Origin: a virus
Lineage: Duplodnaviria; Heunggongvirae; Uroviricota; Caudoviricetes
DNA length: 25,968 bases
IMG/VR virus record: IMGVR_UViG_2541047695_000005
Location: 1-25,968 of that record
Reading direction: 5' to 3' (one strand)
Shown here: positions 3,911 through 21,955 of the stretch, piece by piece
How positions within the stretch are numbered: position 1 is the first letter of the stretch
Layout: every line of letters begins with the position of its first letter
The notes under the pieces: model-generated
Seen by the model: the letters and a program-made list of their open reading frames with translations, nothing else
The model's database searches: none
Told to the model about the DNA's origin: nothing
Made by a program: the position numbers and the translations under genes

Positions 3911-4604
3911 CCGGGACTGCAGTGTTTCCCGGACATCATCCGGTAGATGGCTGTAGGGGTTGCCATCCACCTTATGGCTGCCGCTGTAAATCAGCGTGAT
4001 TTCCACGCCCTGTTTCTCCAGCGCAGCACCGTAATTACTGTGAGCCATCATGACGCCGATGGAGCCTGTCCGGGCGGTCTGCGTGACCAGACGTCGGGAG
4101 GCGGCGCTGGCAAGCAACTGACCTGCACTGCAGTTCATGTCGTTGGCCAGCGCCCATACCGGCTTTATGTCACGCACACGGGCGATGATGTCAGCGCAGT
4201 CAAATGCCCCTGCCACCATCCCGCCTGGCGTATCCATATCGAGCAGAATGCCGTCCACCATCGGGTCGCTGGCAGCCTGTTGCAGACGGGCGATAATGCC
4301 GTTGTAACCGGTCATCCCCGAATACGGCTGCAGCGCTCGCGTCCGACTGACCAGCGTGCCGGACACCGGCAGCACGGCGATGCCGTTCATGACCTGATAA
4401 CTGCGGGCCTGTCGTGGTCCGTCATCATCAACGGATAACGCCAGCGCCGCGGGTGCCTCTCCGGCAGTCAGGCTGTCGCCGGATACCGCATCCGTCAGGC
4501 GGCTGATCCCAAGCTGGCCTGCAAGCGCACAAAAGAAAACCCGCGCATAGGCGGGTTCAAGCATCAGCGGCTCATTAAAGGCCATACTGGCAATATGCGG
4601 GAGA

Positions 4605-4624
<20 letters not shown>
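3305..4624 (-). CDS. C: head maturation protease / scaffold protein C (S49-type peptidase)
   Basis: GTG start at residue 46 of the 484-aa track ORF (VTAELRNLPHIASMAFNEPLMLEPAYARVFF...) gives 439 aa, the lambda gpC length; the 20-nt overlap with B matches lambda. Confidence 0.85.
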
Positions 4625-8305
<3,681 letters not shown>

Positions 8306-14108: not shown

Positions 14109-14555
14109 GGAGTTTACTCACATCTGACAAAATCAATATAAACAGCCCCTCCGGAGAGGGGCTGGAGAGTGGCGCTATGTGCCATTGCATGGTGCCGGGT
14201 GCCTCCCGGTGAATTCAGTACCAGCACCTGAATCCGCGATTATCCCATATACCTACTCGCTGATTGCCCCTCCGCACAGGGGGATTCACCATGCCAGTTT
14301 CTTTTAACAAACTCCCCGCAAACCAGACAACAGTCAACCGCCTGAATTGTGAAGTATTTAAAAATTTCTCCCGCTAACTGATACCCGGCTAACAGTCTGG
14401 CGTTTTCTTTTTCAGCAACGGAAAAGCAACAACCACCACACCTGCCACCAGCACACCGTCAGCCAGCACTGACATTATCCGGCTGCTGCAATGCCATTCA
14501 CAAAAACAGTAAGCAATCACTTTTTACCGTAACAGGTGATAATCCAGATATGTAT

Positions 14556-15019: not shown

Positions 15020-15095
15020 TGGCGCGCTGTACTGGATTTGAACCAGCGACCTGGCGATTATGAGTCGCTCGCTCTCACCACTGAGCTAAAGGACC
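15020..15095 (-). tRNA. tRNA-like gene, anticodon CAT (Ile2/Met-type), acceptor stem unpaired - probable pseudo-tRNA
   Basis: The minus strand aligns arm by arm with the E. coli tRNA-Ile2 cloverleaf (D-arm GCTC-AGTGGTGA-GAGC, anticodon loop CTCATAA, T-arm GCTGG-TTCAAAT-CCAGT, encoded CCA), but the 5' acceptor GGTCCTT cannot pair with the 3' ACAGCGC. Confidence 0.5.
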
Positions 15096-18134: not shown

Positions 18135-18163
18135 CAGATAAAATAAACCCGCCGAAGCGGGTT
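18135..18163 (-). terminator. intrinsic terminator of the hok transcript
   Basis: Minus strand AACCCGC-TTCG-GCGGGTT followed by TATTTTATCTG; a second perfect hairpin (GGCGAGGGA-GAAA-TCCCTCGCC) lies just 3' of the hok stop at about 18203-18224. Confidence 0.55.
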
Positions 18164-18231
18164 AAGTGCGGGTGCATTGAGGATGCCTGACACATCAGAG
18201 GTGGCGAGGGATTTCTCCCTCGCCAAGTCTC

Positions 18232-18387
18232 TTACTCCTCAGGTTCGTAGACTGTGAAGACAGCGACCTCCGTCTGGCCGGTTCGGATTCGTACCTCGCA
18301 GAGGTCTTTCCTCGTTACCAGTGCCGTCACTATGACGGTTAAACAGATGACGATCAGGGCGATTAACATCGCCTTTTGCTGCTTCAT
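18232..18387 (-). CDS. hok: Hok/Gef family type I toxin
   Basis: In-frame ATG at residue 20 of the track ORF gives MKQQKAMLIALIVICLTVIVTALVTRKDLCEVRIRTGQTEVAVFTVYEPEE (51 aa), near-identical to E. coli HokD as I recall it. Confidence 0.85.
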   Translation of the reverse strand: MKQQKAMLIALIVICLTVIVTALVTRKDLCEVRIRTGQTEVAVFTVYEPEE

Positions 18388-18444
18388 AGCCTGCTTCTCC
18401 TTGCCTTTCGGCACGTAAGAGGCTAACCTAGATTTGCCGTTCAT
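18232..18444 (-). CDS. mok: mok-like N-terminally extended frame (70 codons) overlapping hok
   Basis: The same frame extended upstream by 19 codons; 70 codons equals the classical mok length in hok/mok/sok loci. Confidence 0.5.
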   Translation of the reverse strand: MNGKSRLASYVPKGKEKQAMKQQKAMLIALIVICLTVIVTALVTRKDLCEVRIRTGQTEVAVFTVYEPEE

Positions 18445-18500
18445 AGATTGAGCCTCAGATTAATGTTAAGCGTCTTGCAGGACGCGTAATGTTAACTGGG
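18430..18500 (+). ncRNA. sok: putative Sok-like antisense RNA (bounds approximate)
   Basis: Plus-strand TTGCCT-17 nt-TAACCT at about 18401-18429 would start a transcript antisense to the mok start region; a GCGTC-TTGCAG-GACGC hairpin lies at about 18471-18487. Inferred from hok/sok architecture, not verified. Confidence 0.3.
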
Positions 18501-18562
18501 GCTTTTCTCTATCTGCCTTTGGTGTTCATGCCTGAGACAGATAGCCTCAAGCACCCGCAGCC

Positions 18563-18591
18563 ATTCTACTTAACTCCCGTTACCTCGCCAA
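18563..18591 (-). promoter_or_regulatory. putative hok mRNA promoter
   Basis: Minus strand TTGGCG-17 nt-TAGAAT about 110 nt upstream of the mok start; the predicted transcript to the terminator is about 420 nt. Confidence 0.4.
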
Positions 18592-18991
18592 TATGAAATC
18601 AGTCAGAAAGGCGATCCATAAGAACAACAGCAAGGCAATAAATTGCCATTACAGCAGCAATAGCCAGCGCACATTTGAGAACCAGCACCACAACCTCCTG
18701 TATTGGACGTACACCAGTCCTGATAAATATGAGGCTGTCTCGTCAGTGATTCAATACAACTATTGGGTATAGTTTCTGTGATTTTGTTCTGTAGAAATGG
18801 AACATAATAACCTGTCACCACCAGCACTTCTTTAAATACGCCAAGTCCGACGCAAGCTAACCTTCTAGCCCGCTTTGAGCGAAGAACGGACTGAGTAATT
18901 CAGGCCGTTAGCGACACTATGACATCATTAGCAACCAACTAGGAGTTGGTAATAGATGAGTTAATTAATTGATTAAAAACCGACGATTTTA

Positions 18992-19019
18992 CTAGATTAC
19001 GGGAAGAAGAAAGGCCGCT
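18992..19019 (-). terminator. intrinsic terminator after the 65-aa gene
   Basis: Minus strand AGGCCG-TACCAG-CGGCCT followed by TTCTTCTTCC. Confidence 0.35.
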
Positions 19020-19054
19020 GGTACGGCCTCCCAGAGACTAGTCTATTGTTATGC

Positions 19055-19252
19055 TTAGAAACGCTTTTCTATCTCTTTTTCTCTTTCGTTTATTGCATCG
19101 TCAATGATTTTTTTTGCTGAATTAATTTGTGGTGTTTTTTCTGGTAATACATCTTCAAGATCTTTGGCAATTTTCTTTAATTTATCGATTTCTTTAGTTA
19201 AATCAGTTACAGATTTATCCGCTATTGACTTTGTCATTTTTCCATATTCCAT
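19055..19252 (-). CDS. hypothetical small coiled-coil protein
   Basis: 65-aa ORF, Lys/Glu/Asp-rich helical composition (KEIDKLKKIAKDLEDVL...), AT-rich, followed by its own hairpin terminator; no family recognised. Confidence 0.35.
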   Translation of the reverse strand: MEYGKMTKSIADKSVTDLTKEIDKLKKIAKDLEDVLPEKTPQINSAKKIIDDAINEREKEIEKRF

Positions 19253-19425
19253 TCAATTTATTTATCAATCAGTTACCCGTAAACCTTATCATGGATTCCA
19301 ATTATCGACAGCTGGGATTTTTACTTTCTTGATCTGCCCCAGGCGAATGACATATCCCCATTAACCAATGTCCGCTCCTAGCACTTAGTAGACATTAATA
19401 GATTGTAAGCGTTCCCGTCATGTAG

Positions 19426-19806
19426 CGGTCACCGATTGGTGATGAATTGAAGCGGATCATTGATGAAAGTCGCAATAACGTGGCCAGCCCATTTATCGTT
19501 CACCAGATCCCGGAACGGCAGGTTAAACGCAGCAAAGAAGTTTCTCATCCCACTCAAGTTGCACCAGACTATTTGAGTCGGTCGTTTTCAGCTACGCGTG
19601 ACAAGCTGGGTTTATATGACAAACGGCCGATGGATGAAAGGCCAACCTTTCACGAAATTCGCGCCTTAGCAGCACATCTTTTTGATCAGCAGGGCATCGA
19701 TCCACAAGGACGAATGGCACACAGCGATGCGAAATCAACTAAAATCTACACGCAAAACCATATCGACTGGGTTGTAGTTCCACATGGAGAAATTAAAGCC
19801 AGCTAG
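19426..19806 (+). pseudogene. tyrosine integrase, C-terminal catalytic fragment only (truncated)
   Basis: The open frame starts right after an in-frame stop, with no N-terminal domains; it contains the integrase box-II-like segment RPTFHEIRALAAHLFDQQGIDPQGRMAHSDAKSTKIYTQ (H-x-x-R ... H ... Y). Confidence 0.6.
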
Positions 19807-19899
19807 CACCAAGTAAGGCATAGAATTTTATTAACCAAGGAGCATATGACCAGTAATTAATTCTTACCGGAAAGTTAGCCCTGCTAAAATTAATATTAA

Positions 19900-19936
19900 C
19901 AAATAAAAAAATAGGGGCAAATATTTATATTTGCCC
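19900..19936 (-). terminator. intrinsic terminator immediately downstream of the two-gene nucleotidyltransferase/2TM operon
   Basis: Perfect 10-bp inverted repeat GGGCAAATAT/ATATTTGCCC about 12 nt after the stop codon, followed on the minus strand by a long U-tract (TATTTTTTTTATTTG). Confidence 0.5.
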
Positions 19937-19947
19937 TCGCAACATAT

Positions 19948-20529
19948 TTATCTTCTTTTCAGTTCCTTGGGAAGAAAAGCATCTATTTCTTCTTCAGAAA
20001 ATGTTAAATCTTCTTTGTTTTTTAATGCGTCCTGTGCTTTTTTATAAGCTTCAAATGTTGTACTAGGAGAGCCTGAATACACTGAATGTAAACTCTCGAG
20101 TAACGAATCCCGCTCTGACTGCAATTGCTCGATTGGTTTTTCACCCATTGCTAAGTCTGTAAGCAATGATAAATACTTTTCTCGGATTAACCAGATCTCA
20201 TTTGCAGCCTGCTTATGTTTTTGCGCCAACTCACCAAGGTCATAATCTTTGGTATAAGCGTTAAGAATGAGAAGCAGTGTTGATACAACAATCCCAACCC
20301 CCGTGCCTACTTCACCCGCGCCGAAAAAAGTTGCTAGAAAGCCTCCAGTAGTTAAGGCGGAGAGAATTATTTGCCAAAACTTTATAGAAGATAGTCGAGA
20401 TAGGAGAATGTCTGAGCATTTTTCATGCGTCTTATGTGAGTAAACGACCCGACCATAACACTCTCTGATCTGCCCTTCTAAAACCCTTCTAGATTCAGGT
20501 GTATCCTTAGTCTGGAAATGTTGATCCAT
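19948..20529 (-). CDS. SLATT-like two-transmembrane-helix effector protein (putative)
   Basis: ATG at residue 20 of the track ORF with GGGAG RBS, overlapping the upstream gene by 23 nt; 193 aa with a soluble N-terminus, two adjacent TM helices (WQIILSALTTGGFLATFFGAG and GVGIVVSTLLLILNAYT) and a helical C-terminal half, the SLATT architecture. Confidence 0.55.
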   Translation of the reverse strand: MDQHFQTKDTPESRRVLEGQIRECYGRVVYSHKTHEKCSDILLSRLSSIKFWQIILSALTTGGFLATFFGAGEVGTGVGIVVSTLLLILNAYTKDYDLGELAQKHKQAANEIWLIREKYLSLLTDLAMGEKPIEQLQSERDSLLESLHSVYSGSPSTTFEAYKKAQDALKNKEDLTFSEEEIDAFLPKELKRR

Positions 20530-21388
20530 AAATCTCCCGCCATTTTTGCTTAGCCGACCATTCGCGTTTTGGGGTCGCCATTTCATGCTCTATAGCTTCG
20601 AGTGAAATGTTATAGCACCGTTTTGCTTTATATTGGAAAAGCCCTTTACCATAGACATACTGACCACTTCCTGGCGCTTTCCAATACTCCTTACTCGTAT
20701 CTTGATCAGCCATCCATTTGAAGAAATCACGACTCATGAAATCGTAGTAAAGATACGACTTATCTCTATGCGCCCAATTTTCAATGAATTGATACGCAAG
20801 CGTATCAATGAGTAAACCACTTATAGGTACATCCCATTTACGCTTCCAAGCTCTTGCCATTCTACAAAGTTGCACCAAATTGTTATTGGTAATGTTATTT
20901 CTTAACCTCATTGCAGAAATTTCTGGCTTTGGATTTGTAATCCTCCAACGGCCACCACCGTTCGCATCAGGAAATGTGTAACTATCACTAACATTGAGGA
21001 AAGCTGGAACGACTTCAAATGTAATTCCATCATTGAACGGTACAAGGATCACTTGACCGTCACCTCTAATACTAGTGGTAGCATAGGTTTTTTCAATAGA
21101 TCTCTTAACCGCTTGAAGCAATGCTGACTGCCCATTTCCTAAGTAGCTATTGTATTTTTGATACTCGGAATATGGTAGCTGAAAAATCATATCCAGATCG
21201 CTCAAGCCTTGCGTAGCTGTGTTCCGACCATATGATCCAACGTAGAGACTATGAGAAGTATCAGAACTGCTATCCCAAAAATCCGTATTTAAACGCTTCG
21301 TTATATTCCTATATCTAGTTGAAATTGTTCCACCATCTTTTACAGTAAGATTGGAGCAAAATCCGCAAAACCACTCAGCTAAACCCAT
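20507..21388 (-). CDS. cGAS/DncV-like (SMODS-type) nucleotidyltransferase (putative cyclic-oligonucleotide synthase)
   Basis: ATG at residue 3 of the track ORF with AAGGAA RBS; motif LYVGSYGRNTATQGLSDLDMIF matches the GS-x-x-R-x-T ... D-x-D nucleotidyltransferase signature of CD-NTase/SMODS enzymes; AT-rich; a perfect TATAAT lies upstream at about 21540. Confidence 0.6.
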   Translation of the reverse strand: MGLAEWFCGFCSNLTVKDGGTISTRYRNITKRLNTDFWDSSSDTSHSLYVGSYGRNTATQGLSDLDMIFQLPYSEYQKYNSYLGNGQSALLQAVKRSIEKTYATTSIRGDGQVILVPFNDGITFEVVPAFLNVSDSYTFPDANGGGRWRITNPKPEISAMRLRNNITNNNLVQLCRMARAWKRKWDVPISGLLIDTLAYQFIENWAHRDKSYLYYDFMSRDFFKWMADQDTSKEYWKAPGSGQYVYGKGLFQYKAKRCYNISLEAIEHEMATPKREWSAKQKWREIYGSTFPD

Positions 21389-21681
21389 GCTCAATTCCTT
21401 TTCTAAAATCTAATGAAAAATTCAAGGGCGCATGTTCCATGCATCATTGATAACTTTTTTCAGTCAGCTAGAGCAACATAATTGATACTAACTAGCTGTT
21501 TCTTCAAGTGAGTAACCTACTTTAGCATCAAGGTATTATACCTACCAAGCATGGGGAGAAACCACCACTTAAGCCATTGAAGTATATAGAGCAGATTTTG
21601 TTGAAAAAGCACTGTTTGTTTATACATATGAATAGTGCTTTTAACCAGCAATAGCGCGGCTCTCAGCGTTTTACAAGCAGT

Positions 21682-21730
21682 GTCATGGGGTGTCGGGGAT
21701 CGGAAGTTCAAATCCTCTCGTGCCGACCCA
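21682..21730 (+). other. 3' fragment of a tRNA-Pro(GGG) gene (att-site-like remnant), about 50 nt, no 5' half
   Basis: GTCATGGGGTGTCGGGGATCGGAAGTTCAAATCCTCTCGTGCCGACCCA matches the anticodon-loop-to-3'-end portion of E. coli tRNA-Pro (proL type) with a few mismatches as recalled; the upstream sequence does not form the 5' half. Confidence 0.65.
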
Positions 21731-21742
21731 AAAGATTATATA

Positions 21743-21770
21743 AACCAGCCTGTTATTGCTGGTTTTTTAT
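21743..21770 (+). terminator. intrinsic terminator just downstream of the tRNA-Pro fragment
   Basis: AACCAGC-CTGTTATT-GCTGGTT followed by TTTTTAT on the plus strand. Confidence 0.45.
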
Positions 21771-21955
21771 GCCTACCTTCCTGGTAGGGAAGCTATGGGG
21801 AATTACTGGGGAATCCCCCCTTTACCTGCTCCCATTAAACTAACATAGCACGATGTAAGCAACTTCCGCTTCTGGCACAAAGCGGACAACCACGCTAGCT
21901 CTACCCTGTGCCACAAAATGTCAATTTACATCTGAACTAATGCACTTTAATCTCG

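Follow-up and report, generated by a model that had tools for sequence, protein, structure and literature searches.

The window analysed here, a stretch of 25,968 nucleotides, carries on its minus strand a small gene whose product is almost the same as the HokD toxin. In Escherichia coli K-12, hokD (relF) is the third gene of relBEF in the Qin prophage and possesses no promoter, mok start or Sok gene. This raises the question of whether the present copy is also a bare toxin gene or whether it belongs to a complete type I toxin-antitoxin locus, in which the toxin is accompanied by a mok frame and a Sok-like antisense RNA. The initial annotation had proposed a complete locus of the hok/mok/sok type, and each element that it named was found within a few bases of its proposed place. 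The full cassette extends over positions 18141–18591 on the minus strand. We consider it very probable that it is a canonical, structurally intact hok/mok/sok cassette using an RNA switch of the R1 type; that it would also be active in vivo is less certain than this structural reading.

The window is E. coli DNA with 100% identity to strain EC21Z-014, and the cassette sits within a lambdoid prophage beside rspB, i.e., at the Qin site. Within this prophage, it is placed in the early-right (nin) region, where the gene order on the minus strand is replication genes, a variable cargo slot, hokD, DUF968, RusA, antiterminator Q, lysis, head and tail. Both the early-right and the late operon genes lie on the minus strand, and the cassette is co-directional with the early-right operon. 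The variable slot upstream of the cassette holds a two-gene CBASS system and a recombinase fragment. The sole RefSeq annotation at the locus is the 156-nt hokD coding sequence (WP_000813256.1), with neither mok nor an RNA. No relBE was found in this prophage, in line with the initial claim that the toxin gene is not linked to it.

Toxin, leader and antisense gene

The hok gene (18387–18232, minus strand) is preceded by the Shine-Dalgarno (SD) sequence AAGGAG (18402–18397) and encodes 51 amino acids. As had been noted from the sequence, the product is nearly identical to K-12 HokD, sharing 50 of 51 residues, and the sole change is A46V. It matches Pfam PF01848 (HOK_GEF) over the full model length with an E-value of 2.6e-22 and 78.6 bits (cut-off 22), and PHROG 251, ‘MokW-like host killing’, with 2.8e-32. 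Both matches identify it as a small Hok/Gef membrane toxin, a class of about 50 residues with a transmembrane helix at the N-terminus and a conserved Cys. Toxicity is reported for HokW, which sokW neutralises, and for the HokD peptide; the A46V allele may be toxic as well. A TadA-like UACG context is present at Tyr47 of hok.

The mok reading frame of 70 codons, taken from the list of open reading frames, runs from 18444 to 18232 on the minus strand and is in frame with hok. Its AUG lies at 18444–18442, with its own SD GAGG 8 nt ahead, so that the locus contains the leader frame of the family, with a separate ribosome-binding site, an upstream start and an overlap with hok. Another open reading frame upstream of hok, of 74 amino acids (18827–18603), was rejected as a gene, since indels in mEp460 disrupt the frame.

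The promoter of the hok/mok mRNA (18591–18563, minus strand) was recovered by a consensus scan as a sigma-70 type promoter matching 9 of 12 consensus positions, with a −35 element TTGGCG (18591–18586), a 17-nt spacer and a −10 element TAGAAT (18568–18563). This −10 element is conserved in Tritos, mEp460, VT2-Sakai and HannyBb. The first base of a match to the Rfam model RF01794 lies 6–7 nt downstream of it; the match covers 18556–18382 and all model positions (1–157 of 157) with 110 bits (gathering score 59), and thus the leader is homologous to those of hok mRNAs. The match is in mRNA sense; what it marks is thus the hok leader, and it sets +1 near 18556, about 119 nt upstream of the mok ATG, whereas the earlier estimate for this promoter had been about 110 nt. 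Reading this Rfam ‘sok’ match as the antisense gene itself was dropped, as what the model covers is the sense strand of the mRNA, between +1 and the hok AUG.

Counted from +1 up to and including the U run of the terminator, the predicted full-length hok mRNA (18141–18556, minus strand) comprises about 416 nt. The two hairpins expected at its 3′ end, one of them a terminator, are both present, and each folds strongly alone. The first is a stem-loop just past the hok stop codon (18225–18202, minus strand; −20.5 kcal/mol, z = −6.3), predicted to be the hairpin that would protect the 3′ end of the processed mRNA. The truncated mRNA of R1 is reportedly 361 nt long; when an R1-type sequence was counted to this length, the truncated end fell right after the equivalent of the 18225–18202 hairpin. 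The second is the intrinsic terminator (18163–18141, minus strand), with its stem at 18163–18146 followed by a U run.

The consensus scan missed the Sok-like promoter because just 7 of its 12 positions match; the key TTG and TA...T are nevertheless retained. It was placed by homology to R1, sokC and sokW at 18401–18429 on the plus strand, with a −35 element TTGCCT (18401–18406), a 17-nt spacer and a −10 element TAACCT (18424–18429). Its position is that of the R1 and sokC promoters and both hexamers are identical to those of sokW, which bears out the candidate antisense promoter of the initial annotation. The Sok-like RNA, whose ends are predicted, would extend from 18436 to 18512 (plus strand, about 75 nt), with a single-stranded 5′ tail, a hairpin at 18450–18503 and a U-rich tail; it folds with −33 kcal/mol (z = −5.8). 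The length of about 75 nt results from a hairpin that is 16–17 nt longer than that of R1. The predicted start corresponds to the annotated start of K-12 SokC, 8 nt inside mokC, and the predicted position fits the 71-nt complementarity reported for sokW (PMC8621323). Taken together, the sequence features at 18401–18512 (plus strand) indicate a putative convergent, cis-antisense Sok gene over the mok start.

For sokW, antitoxin activity was lost in a construct whose promoter carried mutations near the −10 element (Figure 1E; PMC8621323). As judged from the mutagenic primer YO-421, the hexamer altered in this ‘pro-less’ construct is probably TAACCT, as found here (PMC8621323).

End-to-end pairing and the predicted RNA switch

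A central claim of the initial annotation was an inverted repeat of 15 of 16 nt between the two ends of the transcript. The repeat exists, but its exact count is different: tac at the 5′ end of the mRNA (GCGGGUGCUUGAGG, 18558–18545, minus strand) and its complement fbi (CCUCAAUGCACCCGC, 18182–18168, minus strand) form 14 bp with one bulged U at 18176. RNA folding had been proposed as a check of this pairing, and when the 421-nt transcript was folded, the structure of lowest energy (−179.7 kcal/mol, z = −9.7) indeed had tac and fbi as the closing helix of the full-length mRNA.

Short inverted repeats are generally frequent, and the repeat scan shows other weak long-range pairs in the region, which would be compatible with the complementarity and the hairpins being chance features beside an ordinary small gene. 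However, the tac/fbi duplex has an energy of −27.5 kcal/mol compared with −16.5 ± 2.6 kcal/mol in shuffles, and of 2000 shuffles each, just 3 with a shuffled 5′ arm and 7 with a shuffled 3′ region reached this energy. The pairing is also specific to the extreme 5′ end, as no other 20-mer of the transcript finds so strong a partner in the 3′ region as the 5′-terminal one.

A family comparison bears on the same point. Sequences were collected from phages (Tritos, mEp460, VT2-Sakai, PPompW and a P1-like phage), from K-12 (hokA, hokB, hokC and hokE) and from R1-type and Klebsiella IncF plasmid copies. K-12 hokA, hokC and hokE were rejoined across IS150 or IS186 to regain tac and fbi; for the R1-type plasmid hok, a DNA-level search gave only 47-nt matches, and the loci were obtained by tblastn. 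Nine distinct members were aligned at their 5′ and 3′ ends with no gaps; in this alignment, tac and fbi were paired in 84% of the cells, compared with 39–56% when the partner was slid by 1–3 columns. The pairing is maintained through changes on both sides, namely UA exchanged for CG in the R1 type, while hokA and hokB have AU where the others have GC. The bulged base of fbi varies between U and C among the homologues, as expected for an unpaired position, whereas the paired bases co-vary. The shuffle control on the pair count is only moderately convincing, with 171 of 500 shuffles doing as well as the observed pairing in this small sample of nine sequences. Combined with the fit of the whole leader to the Rfam covariance model, the shuffles and the family comparison rule out a chance inverted repeat, and the reading of complementarity and hairpins as chance features is extremely improbable.

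For the preferred reading, an R1-type switch, the predicted full-length RNA was folded in silico together with successively shorter forms lacking 3′ sequence. In the full-length fold with fbi, tac (+1 to +14) is placed on fbi, and ucb, the anti-SD box AAGCCCC (18504–18498, minus strand; +53 to +59; element definitions according to PMC9841398), on the mok SD GAGG (+101 to +104). When fbi is removed, tac pairs with ucb, and GAGGCU (+101 to +106) pairs with dcb, AGCCUC (+133 to +138). The resulting Sok-target hairpin (18456–18419, minus strand; +101 to +138), with the SD GAGG at 18456–18453, the mok AUG at 18444–18442 and dcb at 18424–18419, carries the mok AUG and appears only once fbi is removed. 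The hairpin is flanked by GAGGC/GCCUC with the mok AUG at nucleotide 11–12, features kept in the nine members while the inner sequence has diverged; the position of the AUG is that of eight relatives. The first 35 nt alone fold into a hairpin of −16.9 kcal/mol that sequesters tac, with 18538–18528 as its partner. A YUNR U-turn in the loop of the target hairpin was also considered and rejected, as the CUAG present lies within the stem of the predicted hairpin.

By these predictions, the RNA would be closed when ucb covers the SD, would rearrange into tac/ucb and SD/dcb pairs after trimming and would start from a metastable 5′ hairpin. The hok mRNA of R1 follows a pathway with a closed full-length form, an open truncated form and a metastable nascent structure (PMC9841398), and the switch predicted for this locus matches that model.

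The mechanism set out below rests on in silico work or homology; the ends and half-lives of the RNAs and the processing at the 3′ end are our inference. A constitutive promoter would produce a stable mRNA of about 416 nt, whose 5′ tac would be trapped in the metastable hairpin during synthesis. Once complete, the RNA would have tac on the 3′ fbi and ucb over the mok SD, allowing neither translation nor Sok binding. Slow 3′ trimming to the 18225–18202 hairpin would then remove fbi, whereupon tac would capture ucb, and the mok SD and AUG would enter the Sok-target hairpin. As long as transcription from the Sok promoter continues, the Sok RNA, labile and about 75 nt long, would pair with the target region and stop mok translation, and the duplex would be degraded; hok would be blocked along with mok because its translation is coupled to that of mok. 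Once Sok synthesis is off, through DNA loss, transcription shut-off or prophage induction, the processed mRNA would be translated, and the 51-residue Hok would enter the inner membrane, so that the cell would be killed or lysed. Against this mechanism, the chromosomal loci hokA, hokB and hokC are cited as not mediating post-segregational killing (cited in bioRxiv 10.1101/2025.08.07.668861). A stable toxin mRNA, slow 3′ processing, a labile Sok and cleavage of the duplex by RNase III have been described for R1 (PMC9841398) and partly for hokW (PMC8621323). The trigger relevant in this prophage we infer from precedent, the best of which is hokW-sokW of Sp5.

Relatives and distribution of the cassette

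The cassette belongs to the hok/sok (Hok/Gef) type I toxin-antitoxin family and, within it, to the hokD/hokW lineage of lambdoid phages. K-12 hokD is found in a prophage of the same type, likewise in the slot upstream of rem/ydfU/Q. Its DNA is near-identical from the hok SD (position 18400 of the window) through hok, the 3′ hairpin, fbi and the terminator. In contrast, it lacks the promoter, tac, ucb, the mok start and the Sok gene with its promoter, in place of which the 3′ end of relE is found; in an alignment of the K-12 relE-hokD region, nothing was alignable upstream of position 18400. The contrast with K-12 drawn in the initial annotation is thus correct, as only the segment from the hok SD to the terminator is shared. 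The prophage analysed here shows no direct relE-hokD fusion of the K-12 relBEF type.

Among 5426 complete E. coli genomes, searched with a 463-nt query at a coverage of at least 80%, the full cassette is present in 3926, about three quarters, while 1173 have the K-12 relE-hokD junction. A search with the 200-nt leader by itself found it covered in 4107 genomes; in the chromosomal examples listed, RefSeq has no annotated feature under this leader, neither mok nor a Sok RNA. Up to 10 co-resident places per genome match the cassette. The intact form without relBE is the common state, and the truncated K-12 copy is the exception and a derived form. Since the intact form is found in 3926 of the 5426 genomes, the contrast with K-12 gives this copy no special status; the locus is an already known system, very common, with nothing unusual about it. 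In phages, the cassette occurs in Tritos (97.4%, annotated as ‘HokD toxin’), mEp460 (95.4%, ‘MokW’), the Stx2 phages VT2-Sakai (Sp5) and 933W (92.8%) and P1-like phage-plasmids (about 88%). Hok has been reported in nearly 80% of those Enterobacteriaceae genomes that are available and is enriched in prophages (bioRxiv 10.1101/2025.08.07.668861).

The closest relative with experimental data, hokW-mokW-sokW of Sp5/VT2-Sakai and 933W, has its 92.8% DNA identity over 417 nt of the cassette. It shares the hok −10 element, tac, ucb, the extended Sok hairpin, the Sok hexamers, the 70-codon in-frame mok and fbi. The two loci differ at the C-terminus of Hok (VFVDYESEK in hokW against VFTVYEPEE here) and in 8 of 21 nt of the Sok 5′ tail and mok codons 1–5, and hokW lacks the terminal hairpin terminator present here. 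Furthermore, hokW lies beyond the tail genes and on the strand opposite to them, whereas the present cassette is in the nin region.

Across the cassette, the region around 18430–18450, which includes the Sok 5′ tail, the top of the target hairpin and mok codons 1–5, is a hot spot of divergence, while the rest is 93–97% conserved. The hot spot may reflect selection for orthogonal Sok/target pairs, i.e., a private antitoxin for each copy. A conserved but unannotated hydrophobic open reading frame of 29 amino acids (18688–18602) ends 7 nt before the hok −35 element in this sub-lineage and might be a second small membrane peptide travelling with the cassette. These two separate ideas, orthogonal pairs at the hot spot and a second membrane peptide, seem unlikely.

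The R1 hok/mok/sok locus (parB), the archetype of the family, has the same element order, the same predicted folding pathway and the same position of the Sok promoter, which in the R1 type reads TTGCGC/TATCCT. Its Hok is only about 40% identical to that of the present locus, the helix sequences differ through compensating changes, and mok is out of frame with hok (58-nt offset), while here the two are in frame (57 nt). R1 hok/sok is plasmid-borne, and post-segregational killing has been proven for it. The E. coli chromosomal locus hokC/mokC/sokC (gef) likewise has an in-frame mok of 69–70 codons, and K-12 mokC and hokC share their stop codon, as in the present locus; its DNA identity is about 74% across the cassette. 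It differs in its location outside a prophage and in a shorter Sok hairpin, and in K-12, IS186 lies between hokC and its fbi.

Possible roles in the prophage

In K-12, IS elements or rearrangement have damaged every copy, and the Sok promoter of the present locus is weak by consensus. The cassette could accordingly be intact but silent, a selfish passenger that causes no killing under natural conditions, as proposed for other chromosomal hok loci. However, its regulatory elements are all intact and are co-conserved in free phages as well as across thousands of genomes. The hokW-sokW locus, 93% identical, works from its native prophage: HokW is toxic and located in the inner membrane, and sokW RNA was observed on Northern blots (Takada et al. 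2021, PMC8621323). In addition, the HokD peptide is toxic when expressed (bioRxiv 10.1101/2025.08.07.668861). A silent passenger is therefore very unlikely in our estimation.

Among near-identical prophage copies, hokW-sokW is the only one studied by experiment. After treatment with mitomycin C, sokW of Sp5 vanishes and HokW appears in a RecA-dependent manner about 1 h ahead of the R endolysin, and deletion of hokW-sokW leads to growth arrest about 40 min later and halves the released phage (PMC8621323). By analogy, this points to an aid to lysis and release after induction. In the present prophage, Sok would be lost on induction, and Hok would permeabilise the inner membrane before the holin and endolysin act, so that release would go up. 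The location of the cassette in the early-right operon, in the same direction, and the presence of lysis, head and tail genes in the prophage are in line with auxiliary lysis as the main role. However, the effect was twofold and comes from one study on one phage; hokW is at another site and opposite to the tail genes, so its role may not transfer to a copy in the nin region; and the inducibility of the present prophage is uncertain, because its cro is annotated as frameshifted. As the main role, lysis aid is a possible reading that we put forward tentatively. Read-through from the early-right promoter as the cause of Sok loss on induction was considered, an attractive idea for a copy in the nin region, and is not claimed in general, hokW being opposite to the late genes.

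Post-segregational killing is the classical function of hok/sok. The main role could, as the initial annotation had suggested with addiction or phage exclusion, be a defence of the lysogen by abortive infection or a stabilisation of the prophage or its neighbouring cargo by addiction. An infecting phage that shuts off host transcription, or loss of the DNA, would then let Sok decay, leading to killing by Hok. R1 hok/sok lowers the plating and plaque size of T4, as cited in PMC8621323, and the two-gene CBASS system is 1.5 kb away, in a slot whose cargo differs among related phages. In contrast, a large survey found no enrichment of hok beside defence systems (bioRxiv 10.1101/2025.08.07.668861), and PADLOC gave no model match for Hok. 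A single-copy chromosomal locus is also rarely lost by segregation. Defence or addiction as the main role is thus rather doubtful.

The practical value of the structural reading lies in annotation: RefSeq labels only the 51-residue hokD coding sequence, and K-12 misleads as a reference, its hokD being derived and truncated. For the biology of the family, this locus is one of thousands at which the role of prophage hok/sok, whether lysis aid, addiction or abortive infection, could be tested.

Cargo genes beside the hok cassette

The slot that separates hok from the replication genes spans positions ~18600-21900 of the window, and corresponds to 812-1477 in locus L018 (apparently strain 2024CK-00184) and 5347-5873 in L002 (apparently K-12). 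In L005, apparently phage Tritos, it comprises 4078-5412 upstream and 6536-8292 downstream of hok. The cargo adjoining the cassette varies among these related prophages, being a CBASS-type system in the window, QueH in strain 2024CK-00184 and relBE in K-12, while Tritos carries an unnamed minus-strand gene upstream of hok and an ImmA/IrrE pair downstream. In this comparison, the 460-bp hok cassette behaves as a conserved unit at the border of a variable hot spot.

The cargo of the window was identified with PADLOC as a two-gene CBASS-type defence system on the minus strand (19948-21394), ~1.5 kb upstream of hok. It consists of an oligonucleotide cyclase (PDLC00786, 4.7e-144) and a 2TM/SLATT effector (PDLC00696, 1.4e-84), which RefSeq names as SMODS and SLATT proteins. 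Between these genes and hok, RefSeq annotates a frameshifted and N-terminally truncated recombinase pseudogene on the plus strand (19407-19806), which suggests that the cargo arrived through site-specific insertion.

Two further RNA genes of the prophage were found by Rfam, both on the minus strand, where they follow the Q antiterminator gene and precede the lysis genes: an STnc100 sRNA (14134-14323, 132 bits) and a tRNA (15030-15089), annotated in RefSeq as tRNA-Met.

A small reading frame upstream of the hok promoter

An unannotated hydrophobic ORF of 29 aa, MLVLKCALAIAAVMAIYCLAVVLMDRLSD, lies on the minus strand at 18599-18688, with a GTG start at 18688, a stop at 18601-18599 and the Shine-Dalgarno sequence AGGAGG at 18699-18694. 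Its end is separated from the hok -35 element by 7 nt. In Tritos, mEp460 and HannyBb, the frame stays open without indels, and all substitutions are synonymous or conservative (A/T, A/V, V/I, R/H); the DNA upstream of the Shine-Dalgarno sequence diverges much more strongly than the ORF. The ORF is not present upstream of the hokW, PPompW and P1-like hok copies, and searches against Pfam, NCBIfam and PHROG returned no match. It may encode a small membrane peptide, or the stretch may simply be conserved promoter-upstream DNA.

Variation within the cassette and its K-12 relatives

The Tyr47 codon UAC (18249-18247), within hok codons 46-48 (18241-18254, minus strand), lies in CUACGAA. This UACG context resembles the A-to-I editing targets of TadA, such as the anticodon loop of tRNA-Arg2. 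A46V, a GCU to GUC change in the window allele, replaces the base immediately 5' of the U in this context.

For K-12 hokC, hokE and hokA, in silico removal of IS186 or IS150 recovered matching tac and fbi elements, indicating that these loci are otherwise complete cassettes divided by IS insertions.

Divergence is concentrated at ~18430-18450, covering the Sok 5' tail and mok codons 1-5, where the window and hokW-sokW disagree at 8 of 21 nt, compared with 92.8% identity across the whole cassette. The mEp460, HannyBb and P1-like copies carry further distinct versions of this segment between identical flanks. The cassette query matched up to 10 places per genome, a count that takes in other hok-family copies. 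Divergence of this segment possibly reflects diverging specificity among co-resident copies.
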